Positions 6,595 through 30,406 of a stretch of DNA of 32,457 nt are shown here, piece by piece. The translations under genes and the position numbers were made by a program. The notes under the pieces are model-generated. The model had not been told where the DNA came from. It saw nothing but the letters and a program-made list of their open reading frames with translations, and made no database searches. The stretch comes from an uncultured Thermoanaerobaculia bacterium (lineage in GTDB: Bacteria > Acidobacteriota > Thermoanaerobaculia > Thermoanaerobaculales > Sulfomarinibacteraceae): contig CAYPBC010000002.1 in assembly GCA_964408845.1 (NCBI GenBank), forward strand, positions 1 through 32,457, in the 5' to 3' direction. Position 1 is the first letter of the stretch. Every line of letters starts with the position of its first letter.

Positions 6595-6711
6595 CTGGCC
6601 ACGTGCGAAAATGCTCCGAACACCGATGGGTATGCGTCCGCTTTGCGCAAGCACCAGAACATCAAGATCTTGGCACATCTCTTCCGGCAGAACCGCTCAT
6701 CTTAGGTGTGA

Positions 6712-8389
<1,678 letters not shown>

Positions 8390-10960: not shown

Positions 10961-11053
10961 ACAGGGGCACGGTTCATGCGCGGGAGGGTGGGTGAAGAAT
11001 TCGAGATTCGAAATTTCTCCCTGTACCCTGAACCGTGAACCCTGTACCCTGAG
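10961..11053. repeat. Heptamer array (CCCTGWA-type x5, 11019-11053) with an upstream complementary arm (10961-10976)
   Basis: CCCTGTA CCCTGAA CCGTGAA CCCTGTA CCCTGAG. ACAGGGGCACGGTTCA (10961-10976) can pair with TGAACCGTGAACCCTGT (11029-11045). Confidence 0.9.
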
Positions 11054-11059
11054 GGCGCG

Positions 11060-12433
11060 ATGGCTGACAACAAGCTGGTCTGGGTAGTGGACGACGATCT
11101 TGCGATCAGGGAGCTGCTGTCGTTCATCGTCACTGAAGCCGGCTACACCGTCGATGCATTCTCCTCCGGCGCCGAGGTCCTCGCCCAATCCGGGCGACCG
11201 CCCGATGCGATTCTCCTCGATCTCATGATGCCCGAGGTCGACGGGGTCGAGGTTCTCAAGGAGATCGTCCGCCGCCACCCGAAACTTCCGGTCCTCATGA
11301 TCACTGCCGACGACGACATTCACAGGGCGGTTGAGGTGACCAAGCTCGGCGCATACGACTACCTCGTCAAACCGGTCGACCAGGAACGGCTGCTCACGAC
11401 CCTGGACCGGGCTCTGTCCCACGGAAACCTCGAAAAAGAGGTTGCGCGTCTCAAGGAGGAATTGTCGGACCGATATCGTCTGCGCGACATCGTTGGTTCA
11501 TCCGCAGGGATGCGAAAGGTGTATGACCAGATCGAAAAGGTCCTCGAGTCCGAGATCACGGTCTTCATCGCCGGCGAGAGCGGCACCGGCAAGGAGTTGG
11601 TGGCCAAGGCCGTCCACTATGCGTCGATACGATCCGACGGACCCTTTGTCGATGTCAACTGTGCAGCCATCCCGGAGGGTCTGCAGGAGAGCGAGCTCTT
11701 CGGCCACGAGAAAGGTGCCTTTACCGGGGCCGTCGCTACCCATCCCGGGAAATTCGAGCAGGCTGCGGGCGGCACGGTCTTTCTCGACGAGGTCGGCGAA
11801 ATGTCACCATCGGCTCAGGCTCGTCTGCTGCGGGTCCTGCAGGAGCGCGTCCTGCAAAGGGTTGGGGGAACCGACACCATCGAGCTCGATGTGCGCGTCA
11901 TCTCGGCGTCTAATCGCGACCTGACATCGATGGTAGATGACGGTTCCTTCCGTCAAGATCTCTTCTACCGGCTGGTGGTTTTCCCGATCGCCCTGCCGCC
12001 GCTACGCGATCGGCGCGAGGACATTCCGCTCCTGGTGGAGCATTTCCTCGACAAGCATGCCCGAGATGCCGGCAAACGCATAACCAGGGTCGAACCGCAG
12101 GCGATGGAGGCGCTGTCGACCCATGGTTGGCCGGGCAATGTACGTGAGCTGGAAAACGTGATTCACCGCACGCTGCTCGTTTCGGCCGGTCTCGAGCTGA
12201 CGTTTGCCGATCTTCCGCCAGGCATCGCCGAAAGCGACTCATCACCGGGATCGTCCGCGCCGCCGCCCGGGGGAGGCGGAACCCAGAGCCTCGAGGAACT
12301 CGAGCGGGAGGCTATCGTCCACGCGATGGAAAACAACCAGGGCAACCTCTCGGATGTCGCGCGCCAGCTCGGTATCGGCCGTTCGACCCTCTACCGAAAG
12401 CTCGAGCAGTACGGCCTGCGGGAGAAAAAGTAA
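11060..12433 (+). CDS. Sigma54-dependent response regulator (NtrC family bEBP)
   Basis: REC domain (VWVVDDD…ILLDLMMP). AAA+ sigma54-interaction domain ([29 protein letters not shown]). C-terminal Fis-type HTH ([20 protein letters not shown]). Confidence 0.92.
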
Positions 12434-14474: not shown

Positions 14475-14493
14475 GGACGGAGGATACCGTTGA

Positions 14494-14522
14494 AACGTTA
14501 TAACGTTCAACGTTCTAACGTT
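14494..14522. promoter_or_regulatory. Four palindromic AACGTT boxes (15-bp unit x2) in a divergent intergenic region
   Basis: AACGTT at 14494, 14502, 14509 and 14517, i.e. AACGTTATAACGTTC / AACGTTCTAACGTTC, between the HAD gene (start 14474, minus strand) and the large TGase-like gene (start 14601, plus strand). Confidence 0.6.
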
Positions 14523-14550
14523 CCGAGCGGGATCTGCCATACTCGATCGG

Positions 14551-14565
14551 TGGCGACGGATTCGC
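14551..14565 (+). promoter_or_regulatory. Weak sigma54-type -24/-12 candidate upstream of the large transglutaminase-like operon
   Basis: TGGCGAcggatTCGC has GG and GC at the exact GG-N10-GC spacing of the TGGCACG-N4-TTGC consensus. Three other consensus positions are mismatched. It lies 36 nt before ATG 14601, and two bEBP genes are in the window. Confidence 0.25.
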
Positions 14566-14600
14566 GATACCATTTCCCCAGTTGCGGCAAACAATCGTCA

Positions 14601-17600
14601 ATGGCGCGTCAGCTGTTGATTGTCTGTCTGACGGCGGTCGTCGTCTCGGTGGCGGTGTCGGTCGGAGCCGGGGCGGTCGAAGACCGTGTCAACGGCCACA
14701 TCGAGGCGGCGGTGGACGGAGGGGTGCGGCCTGCCGATTTTCACCATCTCTTCATGGCCTTTGCCTGGCGCGGCACCCTGAGTGACTGGAGCGACGCCGA
14801 ACGCAACCTCGACCGGCTGTCGGGCGTACGGCGAGTCGATCCGCTGATGGTGGACGAGATCCGGTTGATCCGGGCTCGATTGAGTCTTGACCGTGGGCTG
14901 GATGCCGCGGCACGCGAGCTCTTTCGGACCATGGGTGGCCTCTCGTCTTGGTGGTTTGAGGGCCCGGTGCCCCTCGATGAGTTGCAGGACTTTGACCGCC
15001 TTGCCGTGCCGCCGCCAGCGGACATCGAATGGCGTGCAGTGCCCGGCACCGATCCTCTCGGGTGGGTTCAGCTATCGGGTCTGGCGTGGCCTCCACGGCG
15101 GCAGATGGCCTACCTCGCGACCACGGTCATCAGCGGTGCCGAGCAACCGGTGGCGGTGAGGGTCGGGACGGCGCAGGTCGCCCGCGTGTGGCTCAATGGG
15201 TCCGAGATCGTGACCACGCCGCAGCCGATGCTGCGGGGAGGGGACCAGGTGGCGGGGGGCGCGTGGTTGCGGCAGGGGCAGAATCTGGTGGTAGTGGCTG
15301 TGGCCTCCGAAAACGACCGCTGGTGGCTGCGCGTGCGGCTGACGCGCCCCAATGGGTCGATGCTCGACGACGTGCGCGAAGTTCAGGAGCCGCCTGTCGA
15401 TCGGGCGGCGGTGGAGCGCAAACCACCGGTGGTGCGGGAGCTCGGGGCGGAAATCCGCAAGGCCGTGGAGTCGGGAACGCCGGGCGCGTCGATGGCGCTT
15501 GCAGCCTACCTGGTGGCACATCGACCGGAGCCCGAAAGCGGTGGCGGAACGCGCGCGGCCTGCCGCGCGGCGAGGACTGACGCTCCGGGCGAGGCTCGTC
15601 TGCTCGAGTGGATGGCGACCTCCGATGCGGGCGCGGCTCGCGATCTCCTTCTTGGAGCGGTGGCGGCCGACCCGGATCTCTTGTGGGCCCGCCTCGAGCT
15701 TGCCGGCTGGTACGGAGAACGGGGTCTCTTTGAAGAGGCGCGCGGGCTCCTCGGAGAAGCTGACGGGAATGAAGCGGTCGTGCGCGGCGCCACGCTCGAT
15801 CTCGACGCGGGGTTGTGGGGTGCGGTGGTACTGCCGGCGATCGCCGACCTCGGTGGTGCCTATCCGCGTTGTGTTCGGGTTAACTTGAGCGTTGCCGAGG
15901 GTGCTACCCAGGCCCGCCGTTGGGATCTCGCGACGGAGGCGGTATCGCGTCTTGAGGATCTGACCCCGGGTTCCGCGGCGATCATCGACCTTCGCCAACG
16001 TCTCGCCGAAAACTGTGGAGACGGTGACGCCCTACGGGATATTTTCACCATTCAGCTGGCGCGAGACCCAAACCGACCCGAGGTGCGCATCCGGCTGGCG
16101 CGGTTGCTGGCGGCCGACGAGGACCTCGAGGGCGCCAGCGATCTCATCAGCGAGGGGTTGCAGCGTTCTCCAGGTAACGTCGAGCTGATCGTGGAGCTGG
16201 CGGGCATCGAGCATTCCAGTGGTGACGACGTACGAGCCACGACCCTGGCTCGCGAGGCGCTCGAGCTGCGACCTCAGGACCGGCGAGCGCAGCGCCTATT
16301 GGAGCTGCTGGGCGAGCGTAGCGAGACCTTGGATTGGCTCCGGACGCCCGCGGACCTCTGGCAAATGGCGGATACGGCCGAGGCCAACGGGCACGCTGTG
16401 GCGCTCCTGGATCATCGGGAGACCCGCTTCCTACCCTCGAATCTAACCGAGGAGAGGGTTCAGCTGGTCTTTTTCGTTCATGCTGCCGACCGGGCGGATG
16501 ATCTGCTCACCCATCATCTCCCTTTCATCGCCGAGTCCGAACGTCTACGGGTGTTGCGGGCTCGCATCCTGCGTCGCGATGGCTCCGAGATTGCCGCTCG
16601 CCAGGGAAACACGCCACGGCTTTCGGAGCCGGAGTTCAGCCTCTACTACGACACGCGTCTTCGGGTGCTGAGCTTCACCGATCTCAAGGATGGTGATTTG
16701 ATCGAGATTGCCTACATTCTGACCGAGATCGAGGAATCGAATGAAACCGGCCCGTACAACGGGGGGTTGATTCGTCTCGGCCGAAGCATTCCGATCGCTC
16801 TCATGGAGCTGGAGCTGGCCGGTCCGGAGGCGCTGTTGCCAACATGGGAGCTCGTCCATCTCGAGGGCGAACCTATTTTGGAGGAGGATTCCGACGGGGT
16901 GCGCCACCTGCGCTGGCAGTGGCGGGATCTCCCGGCAGTCGCGTCCGACGTGCCCCCTGCGCCTCAGCTCATGGTGATGCCGTATCTCGTCTACTCGAAT
17001 CATCCTGACTGGGGGAGCCTCGCCGACTGGTACGCGCGCCACGTCGCGCCTCGGGTTCGGGTCTCAGAACAGGTGCAGGAGACCGCGCAGCGACTGGTGG
17101 ACGGGCTCGATGACCGCCTCGAGAGGATCAACCGGATCTACCGATTCGTGACCAATGAAATTCGATACGTGGGCCTTGAGTTCGGCGAACATCACTTCCG
17201 GCCCTTCTCGGCTGATTGGGTTCTGCACCACCGTATAGGAGATTGCAAGGACACTGCGGCGCTGTTGGTGGCGCTGTACGACGCGATTGGCGTGCCGGCC
17301 CGCATGGTGATGGTGCGCACAAATGATCTCGGGCCGGTGAGCAACGAGACCGCCGTGCTCGAAATATTCAACCATGCGATTGCCTATTTACCGGAGGACA
17401 ATCTCTGGCTCGACGGCACGGCCGCCGGACACGCGCCCTACCCGCCACCGACGGGCGATCAGGACGCCGTCGTCTTGGTGATCGACGGAGCGGAGAGCCG
17501 CCCGCAGACCTCGCCTGCTACGGGAGGTGGTCTCGCTCGGTCCAAATTCATCCTCGGCCTCGGTGAGGATGGCGTGGTCGATCTGGCGATCCGAACTGAT

Positions 17601-18137
17601 GATACCGGGGAGGCGGCCGATCTCCGACGCATTCGATTTGCCGGCAGCCGGGAAAATCAGAGAGTTTCGCGCTGGCTTCAAGAACTGTTTCCGGGCGCGC
17701 AGCTCACCGGGAAACCCAAGCTGCAGCTGAGGCCCGGTCGCGACCCGACCATCATGGAGATCGAGGGCACGGTGACTCGTAGTGCACTTCAAAGCAGTGG
17801 CGGGATCCGGGTCTTTCCCGACAGCCTCAAGTGGGCGGCGAGCATGGTGCCGGGTGGCACGCGCCACGGACCGCTGATGGTGGCGGTTCGCCCCGATCTC
17901 GAGTGGACGCTCGAGGTTGATCTCGGCCGTCCACCCGGCAGTCTGCCTGAGGCGATCAACCTGGACACATCCTTCGGATCGCTACGCGTCGAAATCAACG
18001 CCCAGGCCCTGGGTTACCGGGTGGAAGGATTCCTCCACCTCGAGGCGGGGCTGATCGAAGCCCGCGAGGTTGTTGATTTGCGCGAGTTCCTGATCGCGGT
18101 TGAGCGTCATCTCGGACGCCGTTTGGAGTCGCCGTGA
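14601..18137 (+). CDS. Large secreted TPR / DUF3857-like / transglutaminase-like protein (catalytic triad present)
   Basis: Signal peptide MARQLLIVCLTAVVVSVAVSVGAGA. Beta-sandwich-like segment (…VARVWLNGSEIV…WWLRVRLTRPNGS). TPR-like helical repeats. Transglutaminase core RIGDCKDTAALLVALYDAIGVPARMV…FNHAIAY…WLDGT, with the Cys codon at 17244-17246. Confidence 0.8.
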   Translation: MARQLLIVCLTAVVVSVAVSVGAGAVEDRVNGHIEAAVDGGVRPADFHHLFMAFAWRGTLSDWSDAERNLDRLSGVRRVDPLMVDEIRLIRARLSLDRGLDAAARELFRTMGGLSSWWFEGPVPLDELQDFDRLAVPPPADIEWRAVPGTDPLGWVQLSGLAWPPRRQMAYLATTVISGAEQPVAVRVGTAQVARVWLNGSEIVTTPQPMLRGGDQVAGGAWLRQGQNLVVVAVASENDRWWLRVRLTRPNGSMLDDVREVQEPPVDRAAVERKPPVVRELGAEIRKAVESGTPGASMALAAYLVAHRPEPESGGGTRAACRAARTDAPGEARLLEWMATSDAGAARDLLLGAVAADPDLLWARLELAGWYGERGLFEEARGLLGEADGNEAVVRGATLDLDAGLWGAVVLPAIADLGGAYPRCVRVNLSVAEGATQARRWDLATEAVSRLEDLTPGSAAIIDLRQRLAENCGDGDALRDIFTIQLARDPNRPEVRIRLARLLAADEDLEGASDLISEGLQRSPGNVELIVELAGIEHSSGDDVRATTLAREALELRPQDRRAQRLLELLGERSETLDWLRTPADLWQMADTAEANGHAVALLDHRETRFLPSNLTEERVQLVFFVHAADRADDLLTHHLPFIAESERLRVLRARILRRDGSEIAARQGNTPRLSEPEFSLYYDTRLRVLSFTDLKDGDLIEIAYILTEIEESNETGPYNGGLIRLGRSIPIALMELELAGPEALLPTWELVHLEGEPILEEDSDGVRHLRWQWRDLPAVASDVPPAPQLMVMPYLVYSNHPDWGSLADWYARHVAPRVRVSEQVQETAQRLVDGLDDRLERINRIYRFVTNEIRYVGLEFGEHHFRPFSADWVLHHRIGDCKDTAALLVALYDAIGVPARMVMVRTNDLGPVSNETAVLEIFNHAIAYLPEDNLWLDGTAAGHAPYPPPTGDQDAVVLVIDGAESRPQTSPATGGGLARSKFILGLGEDGVVDLAIRTDDTGEAADLRRIRFAGSRENQRVSRWLQELFPGAQLTGKPKLQLRPGRDPTIMEIEGTVTRSALQSSGGIRVFPDSLKWAASMVPGGTRHGPLMVAVRPDLEWTLEVDLGRPPGSLPEAINLDTSFGSLRVEINAQALGYRVEGFLHLEAGLIEAREVVDLREFLIAVERHLGRRLESP

Positions 18138-21100
18138 GAGCGCCTGCGGTCCGCACCGCAGCCCTTGCGGCGATCCTCGCTGTGTCGCTGCCACTCTCAG
18201 CAGGGTGGTGGGATGTGTGGCGCGACGACATGCGTTTCAATCTCGGGGCGGCCCGGGAACAAGCCCTTGTGGCCGTTGCCGAGAACCCGTCGAGTGCCGA
18301 CGCGGTTGCCGCCGCCGTGTGGTGGTTGGCCAACATCGATAATCTAACGGCGCCGGAGGAGATCCTCTCGGTCTCCGAGAACGACCGCGACCCCGAGCTC
18401 GGCTTTGTCCTTACTCTCATCGAGACCAGGCTGAGACTCGAAGCTCCGGCGAGCGTGCTCAAGACGGCCGAGCTGGCGGGACCGTTTGGTGTATTCAGCT
18501 CGCTCGATCTGGAGCGTGATGTCGTGCCGTCCGACGATGATCTGCCGCCGCCCGGAACCCGGTGGCGGAATCAAGGCGCCCCCTTTCGGGTCGCCGTGCG
18601 AACCTCGGATGGGCGCCTGGCGCCTCCAATCTCGATGGCCGTCGATGGGGTCTACCTGTTTTCCTGGAACCTGAAAGTGGCCGAGGCCCTCACCGGTTGG
18701 TTGGTGGTGGAAGCCCAGGGCAGCTACAACCTCTCAGTCGACGGGCACGCGGTTGACCGACGACGAGATTGCGGGTTCGAAGACCCCGCGACCAACTGGT
18801 ACCGCATTCGCCTTGCCCGCGGTGTGCATCGGCTGCGGGTTGAATTGGCCTCGCCTGACACGACCAGCGTGAGGGTCAGTGTGCTCGACAATCGGGGTGG
18901 TTCACAGGCGGTCGTGGGAATCAGCGACCAGATCTCCGATGTCTGGGCAGGGGCAGAGGTGGAATGGACTTTGCCGCCGGCTGAGGCGGCATTGTCGAAG
19001 CGCCTCGAGGACACAGGGGGTTCGACGGCGGAACTGTTGTTAGCGGCGCAGCTTGCACGCGGGCGCGGTGATCCCATGACGGAGTACGGCTGGATCAAAC
19101 GTGCCCGGGCCGAAGATCCTGAAAGCCCTTGGGCCGCCCTGGCCCTCGCACGGTACGAGTTTTTGAAAGACGCGGGCCATCGCGGTGCCGAATCCTCCCG
19201 TCTCACGGCGCAGCTCCTACGGGAGGCGACCGCGATTCCCGGATCACAGCTCTTCGAACGGGCGGTCGCCATACGTGAGGGCCGTACCGAGGACGCCGAG
19301 CGCCTTCTCGATGTGTTGATGAAGAGCCATGGAGACGATGTGCGCATCCTGCGAATCTGGGTTCGTGAGGCGGTGCGCCGAGGGTGGGCCAGCGAAGCCG
19401 AGGGAGGACTGGCCCGGCTCGAAACGGCGCTCCCGGACTCGCTCAGCGTGACGGGGCTCCGCCTCGAGGTCCTGTCGGCTCTCGAGCGCTGGCGCGAACG
19501 TGAGATGCTGCTCCGCGCACTCGCGTCTGCAACACCGGTCGAGACCCGTTGGATCGGTCAACTGGGTACGAGCTGCCTCGCGGATGAGGCGGTTGCGGCC
19601 GCTCGAACATTGCAGGGAGAGATTGAAGATCCCGACTTCGACGTTCAACTGGTGCAGCTCTATCTCGAGAGCGGCGATCTCGACGCCGCTCGTGTGGAGC
19701 TCGAACGTGCACGGGTGCGGTGGGGAGATCTTCCGATCTTTGATGAGCTGATGCTGGTGTCGGCCGGTGGCGACCCCGAGGCGTTGCAGCGGGCGGTTGC
19801 CGGCGCGCTCGAGCGCGATCCCTCGAATCTACAGCTCCTGACCCTGGCCTGGCGTCTCGGGCGGGTCCCGTTCTACGCTCCCTTTCAGGTCGAGGCGAGG
19901 GCTTTTGCCGCGGAGCACCGCGATCTCGGAACGGATGTCGATGCGGTGCTCCTCCTCGACCAGGCGGTGGAACGGATCTTCCCCGACGGCTCGAGCCTTT
20001 ATTATTATCACGGGTTGACCCGGGCCAACACACCGGTCGGGGTGCGTCGCGCATCGGTGCTGCAACCACTGCCCGAGGCATATCTGCTCAAGGTGAGGGT
20101 CCTCAAACCGGATGGCCGGCAGGTCGTGCCGAGCGAGCTCAGACCGGGTGGGGGGGCGATCACCCTGAGCGACGTGGAACCCGGTGATCTTGTAGAGGAG
20201 GAGTACGTGGCCCGGGTTGCTGCCACAGGCGCGACCCGCGATGGTCATTTGCCCCCCTACATCTACCGATTTGCCGATCCCAACCGGGCGTTCGGCCTTT
20301 CCGAGTACGTGCTGTTGGTGCCGCCCGAGATCGACCTCCAGGTGGACGGTAACTTCGACGGCCTCGAGCAGAGCGAGCAGGAGTGGGAGGGCCTCCGCAT
20401 GCTTAATTGGCGTGCGGAGCGTGTGCCGCCGATGCCGACTGAGCCGTTCGCGCCCCCCGCTCAGGATCTGATGCCATGGTTGAACTACGGGTTTGGGGTT
20501 ACCTGGCAGGACGTGGGGGACGCGGTTCGCGACAGGGTGTTGCCGGTGCTGCGAACCTCACCAGAGCTGCGTGAATGGAGCCGGCCGTTGCTCGAGGGCG
20601 AGACGGCGGCCGACGAGCTGCGGGCCCTCGTGACGGCGCTCATCGACACGGTTGAGTCGGGTGGCGGCGAGCTCGCTGTGGGCGCAGCCGCAGGAGATAG
20701 CTTTCGCCGCAGGCGCGGGAACCGCCTCGGGATTATCGCTGCGGTCCTGGCCGACGCGGGCTGGGAGGTCGATCTGGTGCTCACACGCGCGTGGACCGAA
20801 CGTGGTCAACGCCTTCGGGTGCCGACTCTGGATGCGTTTCCGGCTGCTCTGCTGCGGCTCGAAAGTGGTGGCGACGAGCTTTGGGTCGATATCCGGGAGG
20901 AGAGCCGCGGCGTCAATCACATCAACCCGATCTTTCAGGGCAGCGACGGTCTAGTGCTGCCACTGACCCGCCCGCGTACGCCGGTGACACTGATCGAAGA
21001 GTTGCCCACGTTCCCCAATCCTGATCTCGAGGAGACGGTTACGGTCCGTGCGGAGATCTCCGCAGAGGGTGATGCTCGCATCGAGTTTAGAATGCCCCTG

Positions 21101-21658
21101 CGCGGCGCCCAGGCCGATCGGCTTCTCGAACGCGTGGAGAGCGTACCAGTGGATCAGGTGGGGATGATTTATCGGCAGCTGGCTGTGAACCTCTTCGCGG
21201 GCGCCAGTGCCGTCGAGGGGAACATCGACCGCAGTCCTGACGGCGCCGTGATCCGCCTCGAGATGCTGGTTGGCAATGCGTGTGATGCCGAGGGAGGTGA
21301 GCTGGTGTGCCGAAGCCTGGTGCTTGCACACCCGATAGTGCCCGTACTGGCGTCACTGCCCGAGCGTACCTACCCGCTGGTTCTGAGGGTGCCGATCAAA
21401 CGCCGACTCGAGCTTGATCTCGTCCCTGCGCCGGGCTGGGAGCTGGAGTATCATGCGCCCCGGCGCCTCGAGGCACAGTGGGGATCGGTAGATGAAGACC
21501 TCGAAAACGAGGGCGGGTCGTTCCAATCGATACTCCACGTCGTGCTTCCGGCACAAACAGTGACGACCGAAGACTACCCCGCATTCGCACGCTTCTGCCA
21601 GGCGGTCGATGAGCTCTCCACTCGGCCGCCGCGGCTGCGCCGCGCAAGTAATCAGTAA
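18134..21658 (+). CDS. Large secreted paralogue of the preceding protein with a degenerate transglutaminase-like core
   Basis: GTGA start/stop overlap with the upstream gene. Signal peptide MRAPAVRTAALAAILAVSLPLSAG. Same domain order as its neighbour. At the position of GDCKD it reads GNRLG (Arg codon 20723-20725), and the NHAIAY His position reads FPAALL. Confidence 0.8.
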   Translation: MRAPAVRTAALAAILAVSLPLSAGWWDVWRDDMRFNLGAAREQALVAVAENPSSADAVAAAVWWLANIDNLTAPEEILSVSENDRDPELGFVLTLIETRLRLEAPASVLKTAELAGPFGVFSSLDLERDVVPSDDDLPPPGTRWRNQGAPFRVAVRTSDGRLAPPISMAVDGVYLFSWNLKVAEALTGWLVVEAQGSYNLSVDGHAVDRRRDCGFEDPATNWYRIRLARGVHRLRVELASPDTTSVRVSVLDNRGGSQAVVGISDQISDVWAGAEVEWTLPPAEAALSKRLEDTGGSTAELLLAAQLARGRGDPMTEYGWIKRARAEDPESPWAALALARYEFLKDAGHRGAESSRLTAQLLREATAIPGSQLFERAVAIREGRTEDAERLLDVLMKSHGDDVRILRIWVREAVRRGWASEAEGGLARLETALPDSLSVTGLRLEVLSALERWREREMLLRALASATPVETRWIGQLGTSCLADEAVAAARTLQGEIEDPDFDVQLVQLYLESGDLDAARVELERARVRWGDLPIFDELMLVSAGGDPEALQRAVAGALERDPSNLQLLTLAWRLGRVPFYAPFQVEARAFAAEHRDLGTDVDAVLLLDQAVERIFPDGSSLYYYHGLTRANTPVGVRRASVLQPLPEAYLLKVRVLKPDGRQVVPSELRPGGGAITLSDVEPGDLVEEEYVARVAATGATRDGHLPPYIYRFADPNRAFGLSEYVLLVPPEIDLQVDGNFDGLEQSEQEWEGLRMLNWRAERVPPMPTEPFAPPAQDLMPWLNYGFGVTWQDVGDAVRDRVLPVLRTSPELREWSRPLLEGETAADELRALVTALIDTVESGGGELAVGAAAGDSFRRRRGNRLGIIAAVLADAGWEVDLVLTRAWTERGQRLRVPTLDAFPAALLRLESGGDELWVDIREESRGVNHINPIFQGSDGLVLPLTRPRTPVTLIEELPTFPNPDLEETVTVRAEISAEGDARIEFRMPLRGAQADRLLERVESVPVDQVGMIYRQLAVNLFAGASAVEGNIDRSPDGAVIRLEMLVGNACDAEGGELVCRSLVLAHPIVPVLASLPERTYPLVLRVPIKRRLELDLVPAPGWELEYHAPRRLEAQWGSVDEDLENEGGSFQSILHVVLPAQTVTTEDYPAFARFCQAVDELSTRPPRLRRASNQ

Positions 21659-22870: not shown

Positions 22871-25300
22871 TCATCCCAGCGCGCGGTGCGGGGCGGCGAG
22901 GAAGCAGGCGAGGTAGCCGGCGCGGCCGCGGAGAGTGGGGAGGGGAGCGGTGATGCCCGCGTTCTCCCGGCGCAGGCCCTCGTACACCCGGGCGAGCTCG
23001 AATCGGTTGCGAAACAGCCACATTTCCATAGGCTCTCCGGGATTGATCTCCGGCGTCTGGATCGGAACCTGAATGGCATGCAGGAGTACGTCGTCGGTGT
23101 CCCTGTACTCGCCGAAGAGCCACTTTCGGGCGCCGTTCTCGAGCAGATAGGTGATGACCAGGAGGTTGTTGGCAATGGTTCCATTTACCGCAGACGTAGC
23201 TTCGTGTGAGGATTTTTCGTCCTGGGTCAATCGTCGGAGGAGGCCGATTAGGGGGCGTTCGAAGACAATCTCCTCGGCATCCCCTGGGAGCTCAGGCCAC
23301 ACCACGGCTTCAGCCAGCTCCTGTGGTGGCAGGCCCTTGAGGCGCGCGACGCCGAGGTACCGGAATCCCACATACAGGGTGTCGGGCAGACCGGGGTCCA
23401 CCGGGAGGAACGCCCAGCGGACGTTGTCAATCGCCACCATCGAGAGCTTGGAAATATCGATCTCGAGCTCGAGTTCTTCAATGAACGGCAGGGCGACGAC
23501 AATGCCCTCGTTGACGAGTTCGCCGTGGTTGTCGAGCGTGGCCGCATAAGGTCGGGTAGAGATTTCTTCGTTACCGCTCCGAGCCGAAACCAGAGGTGAC
23601 AAGAAAAGGTCAACCTCGGTCGTGTCATAACCGGAGTGAATGAGAAACTCGGCGATGTCGGAGATTTCGCGGGTGCTCTTGCCGGTGGTGAGTCTGGCGA
23701 GCTCGACGATGCCGTGACCAAAGAACTCGAAGCGCTTGGCCTCGGGACCCGGATGGAGCATCGGTAGGAGACGAAAAACACCGTAGTTCACCGCGATCCG
23801 GATACCGTGGTTGAACGGGAAACCGACACCTCGTAGCTGTTCGTAAACATGTTGGATCTCACATGCGGCGGCAATCACTCGCAGGGCGCGGCGCGAGGTG
23901 TAGAAGGCGCCGTCGCCAAGGAATTTCTCGAAGGTGAGACGCCGGCGACGTCTGATCGCCTCGAGACGATTTTGGAAAATATACATGAACTGGAGCGCCC
24001 GTTCCTCGGCCATGCGGCCGGCCTTGCGGACCTCTTCGAGGACGGTCGTGAAGTTCGACAGATCATAGATCAGCCCGAAACGGCGGATCGAGGAGTCGAC
24101 CACTCCCGGAGCGGTGAAGTCATACGGGCGTGAGGTCTTGGCGATCGGAGTCGCGGAGGAAGGGCCGGCCAACACCAGGGTCGTGCCGTGTCGCTGCATG
24201 GGCAGGATCCGTCGCCTGAGGGCTGCGAGCAGCTCGAAGGTCTTGAGACGCAGACCAAGATCCCGAAGGAGGTCCATCTGGACCCTCGAGAGATGGATGG
24301 TGTCGGCGAGACCGGACGAGTGGATCGCATCAAGAAGACGAGGTTCAAGCAGGGCCTCCGGCCTATCGAGCTTGAGGCTCGATCCGACGGCGATACCGAG
24401 GAGACTACCCACCGCGGGTTGGCTGGAAACAAGGTCGCGGAGGCGTTCGAGCACCTCGCGGTTGGCGGTTTCCACCGCATCAGCCCTTTGTCGGAATTGC
24501 GCCTGAAGATAACCGCTGAGCTGTGATAGTTGATTCGGGGGACGGGACTCCACGAGCAGGAGCTGATCTCGGCAGATAATGCCCAAAAGGGGCGTGACGG
24601 TGGGAGTTACCTGGACCTCTGCAAGCTTACGGAGATGGTCGACGGCCGTGAGGGCTGCGCGCCGGAGGAGATCCGCGATAATGGTTGCGATGCTCTGGCG
24701 GTAGTCGTCGGTCCCCGGTGGTCGACGGCCGCCACGGGATATGGGTGGGGATTTCGGCACCTTCGACAGGGCGCGGCACACCTCTCCCGAGTGGAAGAGC
24801 AGGAAGAGATCGACCAGACCCCGGTGGTAATCGTTCATGAAGACATTCTCGAGGGTTGCAGAGATAGACTTGTGGTAGTGCTCCCGTTGCACCATCATCC
24901 GCTGTTTGTCATCCTCGTTGCCGGTCTGTGGTTGAGTTCGGTACTCCATTTCCGCCCTGATCAGACCGTCGAGGTTCCGTCGCAGCTTGAGAACCCCATC
25001 CGAGAGCAGGACCGGATATCCCCAGGTCACGACCCTCTCTTCGTCGCGACCGAAGATTGGAAAGGGAGCCGGGAGAAAGGTTGCGAGCGCAGGGAAGATG
25101 TCGCACCACCCTCCCTCAACCTCCTCCGGGGTGAGATAGACTGGGTGCTTCAGATCCTCCTGGAGGACCTGGCGAAAGGCCTCCATGGATTTTTCGTCGC
25201 GTCTCATCCCTCCATTGTAACGGGTGAGTCGCTCCAATCGGAACAGGAGATTTCGCCGCAACGACTGTTGGGTGATTGGACAACAAACCGGGAATGTCAT
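22871..25300 (-). CDS. Large hypothetical protein with a central, divergent class III nucleotidyl-cyclase-like (CHD) domain
   Basis: aa ~405-545 (nt ~23666-24088) align by eye to the CHD motif series: FGLIYDLSNFT (cf. FADIxGFT), EKFLGDGAFY (cf. KxIGDxxM), IRIAVNYGVF (cf. RIGIHxGxV) and FFGHGIVELARL (cf. xGDxVNxAARL). I do not recognise the ~400-aa N-terminal or ~260-aa C-terminal regions. The start is uncertain; internal Met codons lie at 25207 and 25186. Confidence 0.7.
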   Translation of the reverse strand: MTFPVCCPITQQSLRRNLLFRLERLTRYNGGMRRDEKSMEAFRQVLQEDLKHPVYLTPEEVEGGWCDIFPALATFLPAPFPIFGRDEERVVTWGYPVLLSDGVLKLRRNLDGLIRAEMEYRTQPQTGNEDDKQRMMVQREHYHKSISATLENVFMNDYHRGLVDLFLLFHSGEVCRALSKVPKSPPISRGGRRPPGTDDYRQSIATIIADLLRRAALTAVDHLRKLAEVQVTPTVTPLLGIICRDQLLLVESRPPNQLSQLSGYLQAQFRQRADAVETANREVLERLRDLVSSQPAVGSLLGIAVGSSLKLDRPEALLEPRLLDAIHSSGLADTIHLSRVQMDLLRDLGLRLKTFELLAALRRRILPMQRHGTTLVLAGPSSATPIAKTSRPYDFTAPGVVDSSIRRFGLIYDLSNFTTVLEEVRKAGRMAEERALQFMYIFQNRLEAIRRRRRLTFEKFLGDGAFYTSRRALRVIAAACEIQHVYEQLRGVGFPFNHGIRIAVNYGVFRLLPMLHPGPEAKRFEFFGHGIVELARLTTGKSTREISDIAEFLIHSGYDTTEVDLFLSPLVSARSGNEEISTRPYAATLDNHGELVNEGIVVALPFIEELELEIDISKLSMVAIDNVRWAFLPVDPGLPDTLYVGFRYLGVARLKGLPPQELAEAVVWPELPGDAEEIVFERPLIGLLRRLTQDEKSSHEATSAVNGTIANNLLVITYLLENGARKWLFGEYRDTDDVLLHAIQVPIQTPEINPGEPMEMWLFRNRFELARVYEGLRRENAGITAPLPTLRGRAGYLACFLAAPHRALG

Positions 25301-25311
25301 AATGGACGCAT

Positions 25312-26334
25312 ATGCTATTTGAGGATTTGGTGCGGGCGATCAGGGAAAGCCCTTTCTTCCACGGCATGGCCCAGGATGAACAGATATCGCTGGCGCGGTT
25401 GGGCAGGGTAGACGTATATCCGCCGGGTGGGGTTTTATTTCGCCCTGGCGAGATGCCGTCAGCCCTCTACCTGGTACTCGAGGGGGAGGTTGAAATCTGC
25501 CGTGAGGAGAGCCCGGAGGTGGGACTGCAGCCGGTGGCCTACCTTAGTGTCGGTTCGACCGTGTCCGAGAGCAAGGTGCTCACTGGTGCGGCCCTGAACT
25601 CCCTCGGCCATTTTCCGGAGGGCGGCACCACGCTTCAGTGGCCACGGCCGGTGCTTCTCCGCCACCTCTACTCGTCGCCAGACCTGGCTCTCCACTACAT
25701 GCAACAATTGGCCCGCCGTCTCGAGGGCACCATCGCGCACCTCGGTGCGCACAGTGGCAGCAACCTCCGCGGTAGGCTCGATCAATTTGATCTTCCCGCG
25801 ATTCTGCAGACAGTAGTTGATTCCGGTGCCACCGGCGTGCTCGAAATATCGGACTCCGAGGGTCAGACCTTTGGAGCCATCCACACGAGCAGCCAGATGA
25901 TTGGGCGCATCATGTGCGGAGGTCTCGAAGGTCCTGAAGCATTCCTGGAAATCTTGAATTCTCCACCGGAAAACGGGACTTTCAGATTCTCGAATCTCTC
26001 AGTCGCCCCGGCGACCGACACCTACCGCCAGGTTCAACCGCTCCTCCTCGAGGCGGCGAGAATTCAAGATGAGTTCGGGCATTTTGCGGCAACGGTGCCC
26101 GAGACCGCACTCCTGCAGCCCGCTACTCGCCGATTGACATGGAGGAGCGACAGTAACGCGAATCTCGCGGAAGAGATCTGGCATCAGCTTTCCGCTCAGC
26201 CCGGCGGCTGGGGCGTGCTGGCCGAGATGCTGCCGTTCAGCAGGGGTCAGATCGCTCTGACGGTGCGTGACATGCTGGTGGCGGGCGTACTCAATGTCAA
26301 CCGCGATCACGAGATAACGGGCGGCGAACGCTAA
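25312..26334 (+). CDS. cNMP-binding-domain + DUF4388-like domain protein
   Basis: N-terminal CAP_ED-like beta-barrel (SPFFHGMAQDEQISLARLGRVDVYPPGGVLFRPGEMPSALYLVLEGEVEI). Central DUF4388-like block (LRGRLDQFDLPAILQTVVDSGATGVLEISDSEGQTFGAIH…GLEGPEAFLEIL…GTFRF). Confidence 0.7.
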   Translation: MLFEDLVRAIRESPFFHGMAQDEQISLARLGRVDVYPPGGVLFRPGEMPSALYLVLEGEVEICREESPEVGLQPVAYLSVGSTVSESKVLTGAALNSLGHFPEGGTTLQWPRPVLLRHLYSSPDLALHYMQQLARRLEGTIAHLGAHSGSNLRGRLDQFDLPAILQTVVDSGATGVLEISDSEGQTFGAIHTSSQMIGRIMCGGLEGPEAFLEILNSPPENGTFRFSNLSVAPATDTYRQVQPLLLEAARIQDEFGHFAATVPETALLQPATRRLTWRSDSNANLAEEIWHQLSAQPGGWGVLAEMLPFSRGQIALTVRDMLVAGVLNVNRDHEITGGER

Positions 26335-26375
26335 CCTGCATTTTGACGTCTGACCGGTTTCCCTATACTGGGTCG

Positions 26376-29051
26376 ATGCTGAAAAGGCGCCTGATCCTGA
26401 ACATTATTGCGGTGATTGTCGTCGTGGTGGCAGGAACGTCCCTAATCCGCACCGTGCGGAGCTTCTATCGTCTCGACTTTCCAGTGGCGTGGATTGAGCA
26501 GGGGCTGGTCGTCAGCGACGCTCCCCCCGGATCGAGCGCCGCGGATGCGGGTTTGACCAAGGGCGACCTCGTCGTCAGCGTGGACGGTGTTTCCATTGAG
26601 CGCCTCGAGGACCCGGCGTTCGTTCTTGCGGGTGGTGAGGAGCACAATCTGACCGTCAGCCATCCGGACGGTGGATTCACAGAGCTCGAATACCGGTCAC
26701 CGCCCCCAGCCGTCAACCCGGTCTACCTGGCTCGGACTCTGGTGGGTTTCCTCGGGCTGGGGTGTGCGTTGTATGCCGTGTGGAGCACGAGACGTCGTGA
26801 AGCGGCCACCTTTCTTCTCCTTGCGGCCGCGGCATTGATTCTCGGCGCGGTGCCGAACCGAATCGCGTCGGCCGACCTGATTCTCCAGGTCGTGAGACGC
26901 AGCGCCGGGGCGGCGTTGCCCTTCCTGATCGTCCGGTTCTTCTCCATTTTTCCCGAGCGCGACCGGTCGATGCGGGTATGGGATCTCTTGACGGTGTTCG
27001 CGGTGGTAGGTTCCGGCGCGACGGCCCTGTTCATCGGTGCCGAGGCTTGGTGGCCAGCGTTGGCATCATTGCTGCGCATCTTGTTCGTGTCCTCCATGAT
27101 TTACGGCATCATTGTCCAGGTGTGGCGTTGGCGTTCGGTGTCGAGGGAGGTCCGGATCAGACGCCAGATCGAGTGGGCGACACTGGGCCTATTCGTCGGC
27201 TTGGTGCCGTTTCTTGTCCTGGTCATGGTCCCGCGCTGGCTCGGCATTTCGTTTGAGCCGTTCACCTGGCTGGCGGTCTTGCCGATCAGTGCGATTCCAC
27301 TGACCGTCCTGGCCGCGCTCCGCGAATACAGGTTGTGGGATCTCGAGCCGATCAGCCGCGACTCGCTGTCGGCCACTCTGGTTGTTGTCACCGGAGGGTT
27401 CATTTTCACGCTGACCAACCACCTCCTGCTCAGGTACGCCGGCGGACTGGGTTCCCTGCGCAACCTATTCGCCTTTGCCACCGGTGTGCTCTTGGTTGTT
27501 CTTCTCCAACCGGTTCGGCTGCGGGTCGAGAAATTTCTCGATCAGTGGCTCCATCAAGGACGGCCCGCCCCGCGCTCACTGCTCACCAGTGCGAGCCGTG
27601 AGCTGGCCAGGGTCACTGACCCGCGAGAGCTTCTCGTGCGTCTTTCCTCAACCTTGACCGAGAGTCTCGATTTCGACCTCGTCGCGACCTATCTGCGGGT
27701 CGGAGGGGAGCGTTTCGAGCGCATTACGGGAGACGGAGATCTGTTGCCGGATTATCTCCCGGCCAGAGTCTCCGAGACCGAGTTTCCGGGGGAGAGCGAG
27801 GATTCCATGGCGTCCGCGGGCTTTGCGGTGAGGGTGCCGCTGGAACGGGTCGGTACGGTCCTCGGCCTCCTCTATCTCGGGTTGCGGCGGGGGATTTTCC
27901 CGCTTGGCAGTGAGGGTGAAGAGGTTGTGTCCTCATTTGCCGCTCAGGCGGCGCTAGCCTTGGAGAGCGCCCGGTATCTCGATGACCTCAGGCGTCAGGC
28001 GGAGGAGTATCGGATTCTCCATGCCAACACTCAGCGAATTATCGAGTCGTCGGCCGCCGCGATCCTGGTCTGTGATGCGGCTGCCCACATCCTGTCTGCC
28101 AACCGACGTGCCGCGGACATCTTTGGGCTCGACTCCCAGGATCTGGTGGGGCGTGGGCTCGGCTCGGTTGTCGAAGTGCCCGAAGCTTGGCAGATTGAGC
28201 TCCCCTTGCACGCCGTCAACACCGAGGCGCGAACGTTGTCGGATCATCCGAGGCGGGTGATCCTGGCAGTGTCCGTGCTCGAGCTCGACAGTGGTAGCTT
28301 TAACGGCAGAGTCGTGGTCCTTCAGGATGTCACCGAACTCCGCGAGCTACAGGATCGGATGCGCGAACACGAGCGACTGGCCGGTCTTGGTCGGCTCGCG
28401 TCGGGTCTGGCCCATGAGATCAACACGCCGCTCACCGGCATTTCGTCCTTCGCCCAGATGTTGGGCGAGATGACGTCTGAGGATGACCCACGCTCAGCCA
28501 TTGTCGGCAAGCTCGTGGATCAGAGCTTCCGCCTGTCGCGCATCGTTTCCAATCTACGTGCGATCGTTCGTGGTTCGAGTGACAGCCGCATGGTCGTGGA
28601 GATCGGTGAGGTGGTGGTTCAGGCGGCTCAGGACGCCGCACGTTCTCTGGGGGCGGAGGGGGCGCTGGAGATCGTGAGCCTCGAGGAGCCGGTGATGGCG
28701 TGGGCGTCGGTCGGGCCCCTCGAGCTGTCGGTGGGAAACCTCGTGCGCAACGCCATCGAGGCATCGGCGCCCGGCGGGACCGTCCGGCTCACGCTGGTTG
28801 CCGACGATCGGTGGGCCGAGATCGCCATCGAGGATTCAGGCCCCGGCCTCCCGGACGATGTTCGTCAAAAGGTCTTTGAACCCTTCTTCACAACCAAATC
28901 CGAGCGTGGTGGAACCGGCCTCGGCCTTTCCATCACGCGTGATATGATCGGCCAACTTGGCGGCGAAGTCGGGCTCGTGAACCTCGATCGTGGGGGAGCC
29001 CGAGCGACGATCAGGTTACAAAGATGGCAGGAGCAGGAACCGTCCTCGTGA
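26376..29051 (+). CDS. Sensor histidine kinase: TM-PDZ-polytopic membrane region-GAF/PAS-HisKA-HATPase
   Basis: PDZ-like GSSAADAGLTKGDLVVSVDGVSI follows the first TM. Multiple hydrophobic segments span about 26720-27500. PAS-like region (IIESSAAAILVCDAAAHILSANRRAADIFG). H-box LASGLAHEINTPLTGI (His codon 28413-28415). N, G1 and G2 boxes (NLVRNAIEA, IEDSGPGL, GGTGLGLS). Start placed at ATG 26376; the ORF opens at TTG 26343. Confidence 0.85.
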   Translation: MLKRRLILNIIAVIVVVVAGTSLIRTVRSFYRLDFPVAWIEQGLVVSDAPPGSSAADAGLTKGDLVVSVDGVSIERLEDPAFVLAGGEEHNLTVSHPDGGFTELEYRSPPPAVNPVYLARTLVGFLGLGCALYAVWSTRRREAATFLLLAAAALILGAVPNRIASADLILQVVRRSAGAALPFLIVRFFSIFPERDRSMRVWDLLTVFAVVGSGATALFIGAEAWWPALASLLRILFVSSMIYGIIVQVWRWRSVSREVRIRRQIEWATLGLFVGLVPFLVLVMVPRWLGISFEPFTWLAVLPISAIPLTVLAALREYRLWDLEPISRDSLSATLVVVTGGFIFTLTNHLLLRYAGGLGSLRNLFAFATGVLLVVLLQPVRLRVEKFLDQWLHQGRPAPRSLLTSASRELARVTDPRELLVRLSSTLTESLDFDLVATYLRVGGERFERITGDGDLLPDYLPARVSETEFPGESEDSMASAGFAVRVPLERVGTVLGLLYLGLRRGIFPLGSEGEEVVSSFAAQAALALESARYLDDLRRQAEEYRILHANTQRIIESSAAAILVCDAAAHILSANRRAADIFGLDSQDLVGRGLGSVVEVPEAWQIELPLHAVNTEARTLSDHPRRVILAVSVLELDSGSFNGRVVVLQDVTELRELQDRMREHERLAGLGRLASGLAHEINTPLTGISSFAQMLGEMTSEDDPRSAIVGKLVDQSFRLSRIVSNLRAIVRGSSDSRMVVEIGEVVVQAAQDAARSLGAEGALEIVSLEEPVMAWASVGPLELSVGNLVRNAIEASAPGGTVRLTLVADDRWAEIAIEDSGPGLPDDVRQKVFEPFFTTKSERGGTGLGLSITRDMIGQLGGEVGLVNLDRGGARATIRLQRWQEQEPSS

Positions 29052-30406
29052 TCGATGACGAGCCCGTCCTTCAGGACGTGCTGGGGTCACTCCTGACATC
29101 GGACGGGTTCGACTATCAGCAGGCAACCTCGGCCGCCGACGGCATGCGTGTCCTCCGCGAGGAGGAGATCGATGTCGTGCTGCTCGACCTCATGTTGCCG
29201 GATCGTTCGGGCCTCGAGCTGCTGCCTGAAATCAAGGCGTTCGATCCCCACCTGCCGGTGGTCGTGATCACGGCGTACTCGTCGGTGGAATCGGCGATCG
29301 ACGCCATGCATGCGGGTGCATTTCACTACGTACCCAAGCCGTTCAAGAACGAGGAGGTCCTCCACCTCGTCCATCGCGCCGCCGAGCGGCGGGCGCTTCT
29401 GGTAGAAAACCTCCAGCTTCGGAGCCGTCTCGAAGGCATGGGCGAGATCGTGGGCACCAGCCGTCGACTCGAGGAGGTATTCGAGCTCATGCGCCGCGCC
29501 GCACCGGCCCGCTCCACCATCATGATTGTGGGCGAGTCCGGGACCGGCAAGGAGTTGGTGGCCCGCGCCATTCACCGGCTGAGCTCACGCGGCGATGGCC
29601 CCTTTGTTCCGGTCCACACCAGCGCCATCCCAGCGGACCTCCTCGAGTCGACCCTATTTGGGCACGTCAAAGGGGCGTTCACCGGAGCGGTGAACAACCG
29701 CAAGGGTCTCTTTGAGGCAGCTCACAACGGTACGCTCTTCCTAGACGAGGTCGGGACGATCTCACCGGAGACCCAGACCAAGCTCCTGCGTGTGATCCAG
29801 GAGCGGGAGATCCGCCGAGTGGGGAGCGTCGAGACAAAGACCGTGGACACCCGCCTCCTCGCGGCGACCAACACCGATCTTTGGAATCAGGTCCAGACGG
29901 GCAACTTTCGGGAGGACCTCTATTATAGGCTCAACGTCATCAACATAGAGCTGCCGCCTCTACGCGAGCGCCACGACGACATTCCTCTTCTCGCGACGCA
30001 CTTTCTGAAGATTTACAACGAAGAGAATCAACGTGAGGTCGATGGTTTCTCCCCGGCGGCTATGGATGCGCTCACCGAGTATCACTGGCCGGGAAACGTC
30101 CGCGAGCTCGAGAACGCCGTCGAGCGCTCGGTGGTGCTCTGCCGAGGAGATACCGTGGAGCTCGACGAGCTTCCGCAGGTGCTGCGCGGCGAGGGGTCGA
30201 GCGGAGAGCCGGTATCCGATTTCCCGCCCGAGGGTCTTGATTTCCGGGAAACGGTGGCCCACTACCAGGAGCATCTGATCCGCGAGGCCCTGCGCTGCTC
30301 GGGTGGGGTTCAGCGCCGTGCAGCCCGCATGCTCAAGCTCAGCCCGACAACCCTCAACGAAATGATCCACCGCCTCGAGATTCAAACAAACACCGACGAG
30401 AAGTAG
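29024..30406 (+). CDS. Sigma54-dependent response regulator (NtrC family bEBP)
   Basis: REC domain (VLVIDDEP…VLLDLMLPD), [14 protein letters not shown] and a C-terminal HTH (RRAARMLKLSPTTLNEMI). Overlaps the kinase 3' end by 28 nt. The in-frame GTG at 29048 would give a GTGA overlap but would truncate REC beta-1. Confidence 0.9.
   Translation: MAGAGTVLVIDDEPVLQDVLGSLLTSDGFDYQQATSAADGMRVLREEEIDVVLLDLMLPDRSGLELLPEIKAFDPHLPVVVITAYSSVESAIDAMHAGAFHYVPKPFKNEEVLHLVHRAAERRALLVENLQLRSRLEGMGEIVGTSRRLEEVFELMRRAAPARSTIMIVGESGTGKELVARAIHRLSSRGDGPFVPVHTSAIPADLLESTLFGHVKGAFTGAVNNRKGLFEAAHNGTLFLDEVGTISPETQTKLLRVIQEREIRRVGSVETKTVDTRLLAATNTDLWNQVQTGNFREDLYYRLNVINIELPPLRERHDDIPLLATHFLKIYNEENQREVDGFSPAAMDALTEYHWPGNVRELENAVERSVVLCRGDTVELDELPQVLRGEGSSGEPVSDFPPEGLDFRETVAHYQEHLIREALRCSGGVQRRAARMLKLSPTTLNEMIHRLEIQTNTDEK

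Follow-up and report, generated by a model that had tools for sequence, protein, structure and literature searches.

The locus examined here raises the question of whether four adjacent genes form one dedicated second-messenger pathway. The genes lie in a 32,457-nt stretch of DNA (the window; contig CAYPBC010000002.1 of assembly GCA_964408845.1) from an uncultured Thermoanaerobaculia bacterium of the Sulfomarinibacteraceae. An earlier note had proposed that an 809-aa protein with a divergent class III nucleotidyl-cyclase-like domain (here X809) generates a messenger, that a divergently encoded protein with a cyclic nucleoside monophosphate (cNMP)-binding-type barrel receives it, and that a sensor histidine kinase and an NtrC-type sigma54 activator provide the output. 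We lean towards a different answer, namely that two separate things stand side by side: an undescribed gene of the cyclase family and an independent two-component operon, the latter made up of the cNMP-PATAN, kinase, and activator genes (the trio). Four open reading frames (ORFs) are present where they had been placed (22871–25300, reverse strand; 25312–26334, 26343/26376–29051, and 29024–30406, all forward strand), and carry the following features:

22871–25207, reverse strand: X809 gene, with a probable start at M32 giving 778 aa (809 aa for the maximal ORF, which extends to 25300); from the ORF list and homologue lengths.
24095–25195, reverse strand: N-terminal domain of X809, residues 36–402; from an AlphaFold2 (AF2) model (predicted local distance difference test, pLDDT, 87.3; predicted template modelling score, pTM, 0.88).
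23381–24088, reverse strand: class III cyclase-homology (palm) domain of X809, residues ~405–640; from Foldseek, hhalign, and conservation, the ~640 end being taken from topology.
22874–23380, reverse strand: C-terminal alpha/beta region of X809, residues ~641–809; from the secondary structure of the AF2 model.
25208–25311, no strand: divergent intergenic region between the X809 and cNMP-PATAN genes, 104 nt; from the sequence.
25312–26334, forward strand: cNMP-fold/PATAN (DUF4388) gene, 340 aa; from Pfam, a family alignment, and a PDB profile search.
26376–29051, forward strand: PDZ sensor histidine kinase gene, 891 aa from the ATG; from Pfam, hydropathy, and the H-box.
29024–30406, forward strand: NtrC-type sigma54 activator gene, 460 aa; from Pfam and motifs.

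The first half of this answer concerns the palm domain of X809, which is very likely a true homologue of the class III cyclases. A Foldseek search of the PDB with the AF2 model of X809 gave 66 matches at E ≤ 1e-3 (11–15% identity), and the top 50 matches listed were all class III adenylate or guanylate cyclase structures, with CyaB (3r5g) the best at E 3.6e-6 and Cya2, CyaC, Rv1900c, and Ma1120 among the others; target template modelling scores were 0.54–0.76 for single-domain targets. The palm topology in the model, a predicted and not an experimental structure, is that of the class III cyclase fold, with a helical insert at ~541–574, after alpha4. Profile–profile comparison with hhalign pointed the same way, as a 42-sequence X809 alignment reaching 23% identity matched a set of 12 cyclase domains (six mammalian C1/C2 domains, one approximate consensus, and five genuine acidobacterial cyclase domains from loci fetched for this analysis) with 95.2% probability and an E value of 2.7e-8. 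The claim of a divergent class III cyclase-like domain in the 809-aa protein is thereby borne out by both predicted structure and profile–profile comparison.

Several results weigh against this homology. The AF2 model of full-length X809 is only moderately good (pLDDT 74, pTM 0.51), an earlier hhalign comparison of a shallow family alignment with 7 cyclase sequences was not significant (1.2% probability), the Pfam Guanylate_cyc model has no match to X809 at E ≤ 10, and PDB sequences searched with X809, both as a single sequence and as family profiles, returned noise only (TFIIE, a tRNA endonuclease, and a torsin-interacting protein). Scans of X809 with Pfam and NCBIfam gave no family, the best hits being noise (NRho, E 0.11; DivIVA, E 0.15), and neither Guanylate_cyc nor DUF2652 matched the 42 diverse members (E ≤ 0.01) or 11 palm-only sequences (E ≤ 10); for comparison, a canonical cyclase from one of the fetched loci (L066) scored 97.5 bits to Guanylate_cyc. 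A search of 1.84 billion representative proteins with a profile of the palm alone found only the X809 family and reached no canonical cyclase, and there is therefore no transitive bridge to the canonical enzymes. The lack of a Pfam, NCBIfam, or PDB sequence match, the first hhalign result, and the moderate model could together mean that the cyclase resemblance is a structure-prediction artefact or a chance motif in a protein of unrelated function. We consider this extremely improbable, since Foldseek and the sequence-only hhalign comparison agree on one register, which sets six or seven invariant residues on canonical catalytic positions; both hhalign comparisons choose this register, and it is identical to that read by eye.

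In the hhalign register, D413 (Y-D-L-x-x-F-T) and D463 (K-F-L-G-D) align to the two metal Asp positions, and K459, four residues before the second metal Asp, aligns to the adenine-specifying Lys (K-x-x-G-D). R501 corresponds to the phosphate-binding Arg (R-I-G-I-H-x-G in cyclases, R-I-A-x-N-x-G in X809) and R536 to the transition-state Arg on alpha4, while E525 occupies the position of the purine-specifying Asp, and that of the transition-state Asn is taken by V532, followed by an invariant E533. Across 54 members with identities down to 34%, every residue at these positions (D413, K459, D463, R501, E525, V532, E533, and R536) is the same (54/54), and the palm is the best-conserved region (0.8, compared with ~0.55 elsewhere). 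In the 42-sequence set, D413, K459, and E533 never vary, and conservation is at least 90% at D463, R501, N505, E525, R536, and K541. At the positions of the purine-specifying pair, X809 has Lys/Glu (K459/E525), as opposed to Lys/Asp for ATP or Glu/Cys-type for GTP, a combination that does not by itself assign a substrate. Given that the catalytic residues all fall on X809, one chain bears both C1-type and C2-type residues, as in homodimeric bacterial cyclases. The deviation from canonical catalytic residues that had been claimed for the generator is real (Asn to Val532 and Asp to Glu525), with most other residues kept. Judged from these residues, the palm looks catalytically competent, and X809 probably represents an undescribed, divergent cyclase family that is active.

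Two features of the site count against activity of the canonical kind, the absence of the transition-state Asn (Val532) and the adjacent invariant E533, which has no counterpart in canonical cyclases; the chemistry of X809 could therefore differ from theirs. On this basis, X809 might be a cyclase-fold pseudoenzyme or another nucleotidyl transferase, binding a nucleotide and metal as a regulatory ligand or making something other than a 3′,5′-cNMP, such as a 2′,3′-cyclic or linear product. The helical insert in the palm fits such a role, as do the sequence isolation of the family (105 clusters in 1.84 billion proteins, none of them a canonical cyclase), a genomic context of housekeeping and not signalling genes, and the fact that these genomes also encode Pfam-detectable cyclases, such as those of the FHA-GAF-Guanylate_cyc type. 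We nevertheless find this reading unlikely. Pseudoenzymes usually lose the metal Asp pair, whereas in X809 that pair persists along with the Lys and the two Arg, each of them invariant or conserved to at least 90% in members as distant as 23% identity. Other cyclases are active without the Asn: XC_0250 is an active guanylate cyclase with Asn and Arg both substituted (PMC3770947), and Rv1900c, also active, is cited in PMC4886424 as having His at the transition-state Asn position. The missing Asn in X809 is therefore compatible with activity.

If X809 is an active cyclase, we envisage a head-to-tail homodimer that would form two composite active sites, with the metal pair D413/D463 and K459, E525, R536, and R501 all supplied by one chain type. 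The enzyme would cyclise a purine nucleoside triphosphate, most likely ATP given the Lys, using the Lys/Glu specificity pair and dispensing with the transition-state Asn (Val532), as has been predicted for the DUF2652 cyclase-like family, which also lacks the Asn (PMC4886424). That the palm makes a cyclic nucleotide is, in our estimate, slightly short of an even chance.

The second half of the answer comes from the gene neighbourhood. We fetched 80 loci around long-branch X809 homologues, 80 around the short branch of the family (~670 aa), and 46 around relatives of the cNMP-PATAN protein, and counted adjacency where the flank was sufficient. In loci whose X809 homologue has at least 50% identity, the PATAN gene is adjacent in 36/37, the kinase gene in 36/37, and the activator gene in 37/37. 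At 40–50% identity, the kinase and activator genes are adjacent in three of 15 loci and the PATAN gene in none of the 15; below 40%, no gene of the trio is adjacent (0/11), and no locus of the short branch contains any of them (0/57). Ordinary genes are linked to X809 at least as tightly as the signalling genes are, with rsgA, encoding a ribosome-biogenesis GTPase, adjoining it in 43 of 69 long-branch loci. The loci at ≥50% identity likewise keep rsgA, both of the neighbouring giant genes encoding tetratricopeptide repeat (TPR) proteins, and mostly mnmA, and the whole block is therefore syntenic.

By comparison, the trio is fixed. The kinase gene follows the PATAN gene in 46/46 loci and the activator gene follows the kinase gene in 45/45 loci where the contig allows it to be seen. 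Three genomes (loci L107, L110, and L112) hold the trio without an adjacent X809 gene, with cytochrome bd-like genes upstream instead; their X809 genes lie elsewhere, ~100 kb from L107 on the same contig in one case (L047) and on other contigs in the others (L038 and L045), each adjoining a comM-type gene. In four loci, the X809 gene stands beside the kinase and activator genes without a PATAN gene. The X809 family is found in at least 468 species genomes, as against 46 for the PATAN protein, the latter number coming from a pattern-based scan that may miss divergent copies. As the trio is fixed and X809 is separable from it and far more widespread, the fixed unit is the trio and not the four genes.

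A dedicated four-gene pathway is thus not borne out, the four genes largely failing to co-occur in relatives, an outcome that the earlier note had itself counted against its proposal. Under that proposal, a cyclic nucleotide made by X809 would act through the cNMP-PATAN protein on the PDZ kinase and lead to a phosphorylated sigma54 activator. Its merits are genuine: the genes are divergent and closely spaced, the adjacency is nearly complete at ≥50% identity, the cyclase fold is real with a conserved site, the cNMP fold is real, and a degenerate ligand site could suit an unusual ligand. All the same, we rate it as rather improbable, and equally so the narrower claim that X809 feeds the neighbouring trio, given that the genes for RsgA, the TPR giants, and MnmA on the flanks are adjacent at least as consistently, that the trio and X809 occur apart or incompletely in the loci described above, and that distant and short-branch loci lack the trio. 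Further points against it, from the ligand site and the shared intergenic region, are given below. The adjacency of X809 and the trio is probably synteny inherited in one sub-clade (the Sulfomarinibacteraceae and relatives) and not conserved functional linkage. Two observations run counter to this: the adjacency persists to ~50% identity in X809 and ~48% in the PATAN protein, and there are four loci in which the kinase gene directly abuts the X809 gene. Adjacency across such considerable divergence, together with the abutting kinase genes, leaves room for some lineage-specific coupling, and a functional link between X809 and the trio may exist in these lineages.

The precedent for such a link is XC_0250/XC_0249 of Xanthomonas campestris (An et al. 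2013, PMC3770947), where a substituted class III cyclase is encoded beside a cNMP-domain gene, much as was first proposed here. In that system, the connection of cyclase and cNMP receptor is proven by genetics, isothermal titration calorimetry, and a crystal structure, and the genes are reported as neighbours in a number of xanthomonads (PMC3770947). In contrast, the adjacency at our locus is confined to one sub-clade and broken in three genomes, and the cNMP partner carries a PATAN domain and a cassette without Arg, where XC_0249 carries GGDEF. Closeness of a generator and a receptor in one genome is accordingly not enough to infer a pathway, and here the comparative data separate them.

The spacing of the genes also bears on the proposal. 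The X809 homologues are mostly 776–778 aa long and begin at the equivalent of M32, the ATG of which is at 25207–25205; we therefore take M32 as the true start of a 778-aa product. The gene probably spans 22871–25207, which would make the divergent intergenic region 104 nt and not 11 bp; the 11-nt gap first described holds for the maximal 809-aa ORF and is lost with the probable start. Equivalent regions in other loci measure 54–324 nt, with one 11-nt outlier. At 809 aa, and probably 778 aa, the protein does not merit the label of giant that it had been given. Within the trio, the 41-nt spacing between the PATAN gene stop (26334) and the kinase ATG (26376) agrees with the ORF coordinates; an alternative TTG start at 26343 would give a kinase of 902 aa, so that the gap is 8–41 nt depending on the start. 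The described overlap of the kinase and activator genes is likewise present and measures 28 nt.

The putative receptor has the domains that had been described for it. Its PATAN/DUF4388 match in Pfam reaches 34.6 bits (cut-off 25) over residues 154–254, corresponding to 2–120 of the 122 model positions, and its N-terminal cNMP_binding match (27.0 bits) falls marginally under the 27.5 cut-off. A family profile searched against the PDB matched the cNMP domains of PKG, PKA-R, and CRP/FNR proteins at E values of 1.7e-7 to 1e-5, with the three PKG alignments displayed ending at about residues 82–84, short of the phosphate-binding cassette. In the family alignment, the cassette retains Glu86 and Ser97 but has varying residues (N/T/A/S/E/K) at the Arg position, the register against CRP being a by-eye reading. 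In the canonical cassette (G-E-...-R-[ST]-A), the Arg is the clamp for the cyclic phosphate. The non-canonical ligand site that had been noted is therefore confirmed, and, with the Arg position variable, binding of a canonical cNMP by this protein appears unlikely from its sequence. Both the missing Arg and the alignments ending before the cassette speak against the four-gene pathway. Atypical cNMP sites do exist, as XC_0249 binds its ligand by other contacts (PMC3770947).

The DUF4388 domain is the PATAN domain, and PATAN-REC regulators of Synechocystis have been reported to bind the pilus motor ATPase PilB1 (bioRxiv 10.1101/2021.06.11.447907), which by analogy suggests that the cNMP-PATAN protein may be a protein–protein adaptor; most likely, it would act as an accessory partner of the kinase. 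Compared with PatA-type/PATAN regulators, with which it shares the PATAN domain, it fuses this domain to a cNMP-fold barrel and not to a receiver domain, and, unlike the Synechocystis PATAN-REC regulators, its gene invariably precedes those of a PDZ kinase and a sigma54 activator. Literature searches found nothing on a cNMP-PATAN fusion, and no paper in the collection searched combines "PATAN domain" and "cyclic nucleotide-binding". Beyond the PATAN match, residues ~260–335 carry a conserved G-W-x-x-L-x-x-x-L-P-[YF]-S-[RK]-G-x-[VI]...V-R pattern. These C-terminal ~75 residues look like a winged-helix segment, which, if true, would make the protein similar to a CRP/FNR regulator into which a PATAN domain has been inserted.

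The kinase and activator form a two-component pair. The kinase has Pfam matches to PDZ_6, PAS, HisKA, and HATPase_c, an H-box of HEINTP, and, by hydropathy, one N-terminal transmembrane (TM) helix followed by the PDZ domain and nine hydrophobic segments up to residue ~382; this order places the PDZ domain outside the cytoplasm and the kinase core inside it. The extracytoplasmic PDZ domain, polytopic region, and PAS module ascribed to the kinase thus stand, while the GAF-like module (~residues 400–545) has no Pfam support. The activator is an NtrC-type bacterial enhancer-binding protein, as had been claimed, with Response_reg, Sigma54_activat, AAA_lid_14, and HTH_8 (Fis-type) domains, a Walker A motif (GESGTGK) at 170, and GAFTGA at 217; NCBIfam equivalogs (AtoC/NtrC-like) scored far below their cut-offs (AtoC, 443 bits compared with 714). 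For the locus as a whole, then, the Pfam families PDZ, HisKA, HATPase_c, DUF4388, and Sigma54_activat were matched, cNMP_binding fell just short, and Guanylate_cyc went unmatched.

Given one strand, the 8–41 nt gap, and the 28-nt overlap, we infer that the PATAN, kinase, and activator genes are co-transcribed as one two-component module, the output of which would be directed to sigma54 promoters elsewhere. The module resembles the AtoS/AtoC, NtrB/NtrC, and ZraS/ZraR systems in its HisKA/HATPase kinase and its translationally coupled REC-AAA+(GAFTGA)-HTH_8 regulator, and differs from them in the extracytoplasmic PDZ domain of the kinase, followed by a membrane block of ~9 TM segments.

A sigma54 promoter linking the activator to X809 was considered and rejected, as the X809/PATAN intergenic region contains no sigma54 element and none is conserved in 39 orthologous intergenic regions, a further point against the four-gene pathway. 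Across the window, the −24/−12 sigma54 pattern is not enriched (25 matches, with 27.9 expected). The best match in the window, TGGCACATCTCTTCC (one mismatch; 6671–6685, forward strand), lies ~30 nt upstream of obg (6715–7728) and may be a chance occurrence given the lack of enrichment. A scan for sigma70-type promoters found none and was uninformative, the terminator-like hairpins detected all lay outside the gaps between genes, and Rfam and tRNA scans of the window returned nothing. A Pycsar-like defence system (cyclase plus cNMP effector) was also rejected, given that PADLOC had no match for X809, the cNMP-PATAN protein, or the kinase, that X809 has the distribution of a core gene, and that the context is housekeeping.

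Residues 36–402 of X809, modelled separately with a diverse alignment, are mostly alpha-helical with small beta hairpins, and Foldseek found nothing significant for them in the PDB (best E 0.16, template modelling score < 0.3); the structural comparison proposed for the N-terminal region of the 809-aa protein thus yielded no solved relative. This domain is a confidently predicted novel fold in the model and is presumably a regulatory or sensor module. Members of the ~670-aa branch have a shorter C-terminal alpha/beta region.

Relative to the class III cyclases (CyaB 3r5g, Cya2 2w01, CyaC 1wc*, Rv1900c, and Ma1120), X809 therefore shares the predicted palm fold, profile–profile homology, and a set of catalytic residues on one chain: the metal Asp pair, the Lys, and the Arg residues for phosphate binding and for the transition state. 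It differs in being undetected by the Pfam model and only 11–15% identical to solved cyclases, in the Asn to Val and Asp to Glu changes, the extra Glu533, and the helical insert after alpha4, and in an N-terminal domain of 370 residues that has no structural relative, with no TM, HAMP, GAF, PAS, or usual sensor module found. A further relevant comparison is the mycobacterial DUF2652 group (Ramakrishnan et al. 2016, PMC4886424), an experimentally untested family with a predicted signature of D,D / K,E / Ile-for-Asn, R. Both keep the metal pair, Lys/Glu, and Arg, have an aliphatic residue at the Asn position (Ile/Val), and are recognised only by sensitive methods. DUF2652 proteins are single-domain (~250 aa) and occur in Actinobacteria, Bacteroidetes, and Proteobacteria, in contrast to X809, with 778 aa, three regions, and a restriction to Thermoanaerobaculia.

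At least 224 relatives of X809 were found, almost all annotated "hypothetical", with one Joint Genome Institute (JGI) record labelled "class 3 adenylate cyclase". In the palm-only search, long matches place the palm at ~350–550 within proteins of 640–790 aa. Genome scans detected the long form in 246 species genomes, the figure of at least 468 including the short-form pattern, and nearly all genomes with X809 relatives are labelled Thermoanaerobaculia, Holophagae, or Acidobacteriota. From the 105 clusters and the genome scans, the family is small, sequence-isolated, and near class-wide in Thermoanaerobaculia. Literature searches returned nothing on it. The claim that neither X809 nor the cNMP-PATAN protein has a characterised orthologue therefore holds, the homologues being almost all "hypothetical" and X809 having no PDB sequence match and no match in the literature. 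A near-syntenic locus is also found in metagenome-assembled genomes labelled Deltaproteobacteria, Chondromyces, Methylomirabilota, or Polyangiaceae (L002/L081, L012/L092, L035/L109, L166, and L203); these labels probably reflect mistakes in binning or taxonomic labelling and not horizontal transfer.

Away from the trio, X809 keeps other company. Neighbours of distant homologues include comM, PIN-PhoH, pepA, ABC ATPase genes, and purC, and the conserved neighbours in the short branch encode an M17 leucyl aminopeptidase, ABC ATPases, a TolC-like protein, and PurC. In several loci, the X809 homologue lies directly 3′ of a comM/yifB-type gene for a Mg-chelatase-like ATPase on the same strand, with gaps of 23–38 nt (L038, L045, L050, L054, and L059) or 73–303 nt (L048, L064, L066, L069, L070, L076, L077, and L079); co-transcription of X809 with comM is possible in these mid-distance lineages. 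Five distant loci also contain an FHA-GAF-Guanylate_cyc cyclase gene (~528 aa) 8–10 kb upstream of the X809 homologue (L064, 13–1551; L066, 489–2075; L067, 15–1601; L069, 79–1665; and L075, 149–1735), and these genomes therefore hold ordinary cyclases together with the X809 family.

The flanks of the locus in the window are ordinary chromosomal genes, with the tandem TPR/DUF3857/transglutaminase-like giants and rsgA on one side and mnmA on the other. The giants (14490–18137 and 18134–21658, forward strand) are overlapping paralogues of 1215 and 1174 aa with TPR and DUF3857, the first with a transglutaminase core, and both are kept beside rsgA in most long-branch loci. Farther upstream are obg, a sigma factor gene, and another sigma54 activator gene (11060–12433, forward strand; 17 kb upstream), which is also NtrC-type (REC, Sigma54_activat, and HTH_8; GAFTGA at 219). 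A sigma54-like element, GGGCACGGTTCATGC (two mismatches), lies at 10965–10979 in the short intergenic region just before this second activator gene, and the preceding 390-aa ORF (9771–10943) belongs to no Pfam family. Nor does Pfam assign a family, at E ≤ 1e-4, to two adjacent ORFs on the forward strand, 878–1522 (214 aa) and 1529–2368 (279 aa).

The two components of the locus matter in different ways. The trio is an invariant three-gene module and offers a way of studying the PATAN domain, still poorly understood, in organisms other than cyanobacteria and myxobacteria. It is quite improbable that X809 is a new class-wide cyclase branch, with an N-terminal sensory fold not seen before and an altered active site (the Lys/Glu pair, and Val-Glu where the Asn would be), making a messenger other than ordinary cyclic AMP or cyclic GMP, read by the cNMP-PATAN protein to gate the kinase and activator in the Sulfomarinibacteraceae lineage; if true, a cyclic-nucleotide signal would have been wired into a two-component system in this one lineage. 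Marine sediments and soils commonly harbour Thermoanaerobaculia, most of which are uncultured. As the X809 family is missed by Pfam, NCBIfam, and PADLOC, censuses of cNMP signalling that rely on such libraries would undercount these organisms. The Lys/Glu/Val-Glu/Arg site of X809 would provide, alongside DUF2652, a test case for the residues that a class III cyclase needs, and X809, if active, adds a distinct, previously invisible branch of class III cyclases that is restricted essentially to Thermoanaerobaculia.

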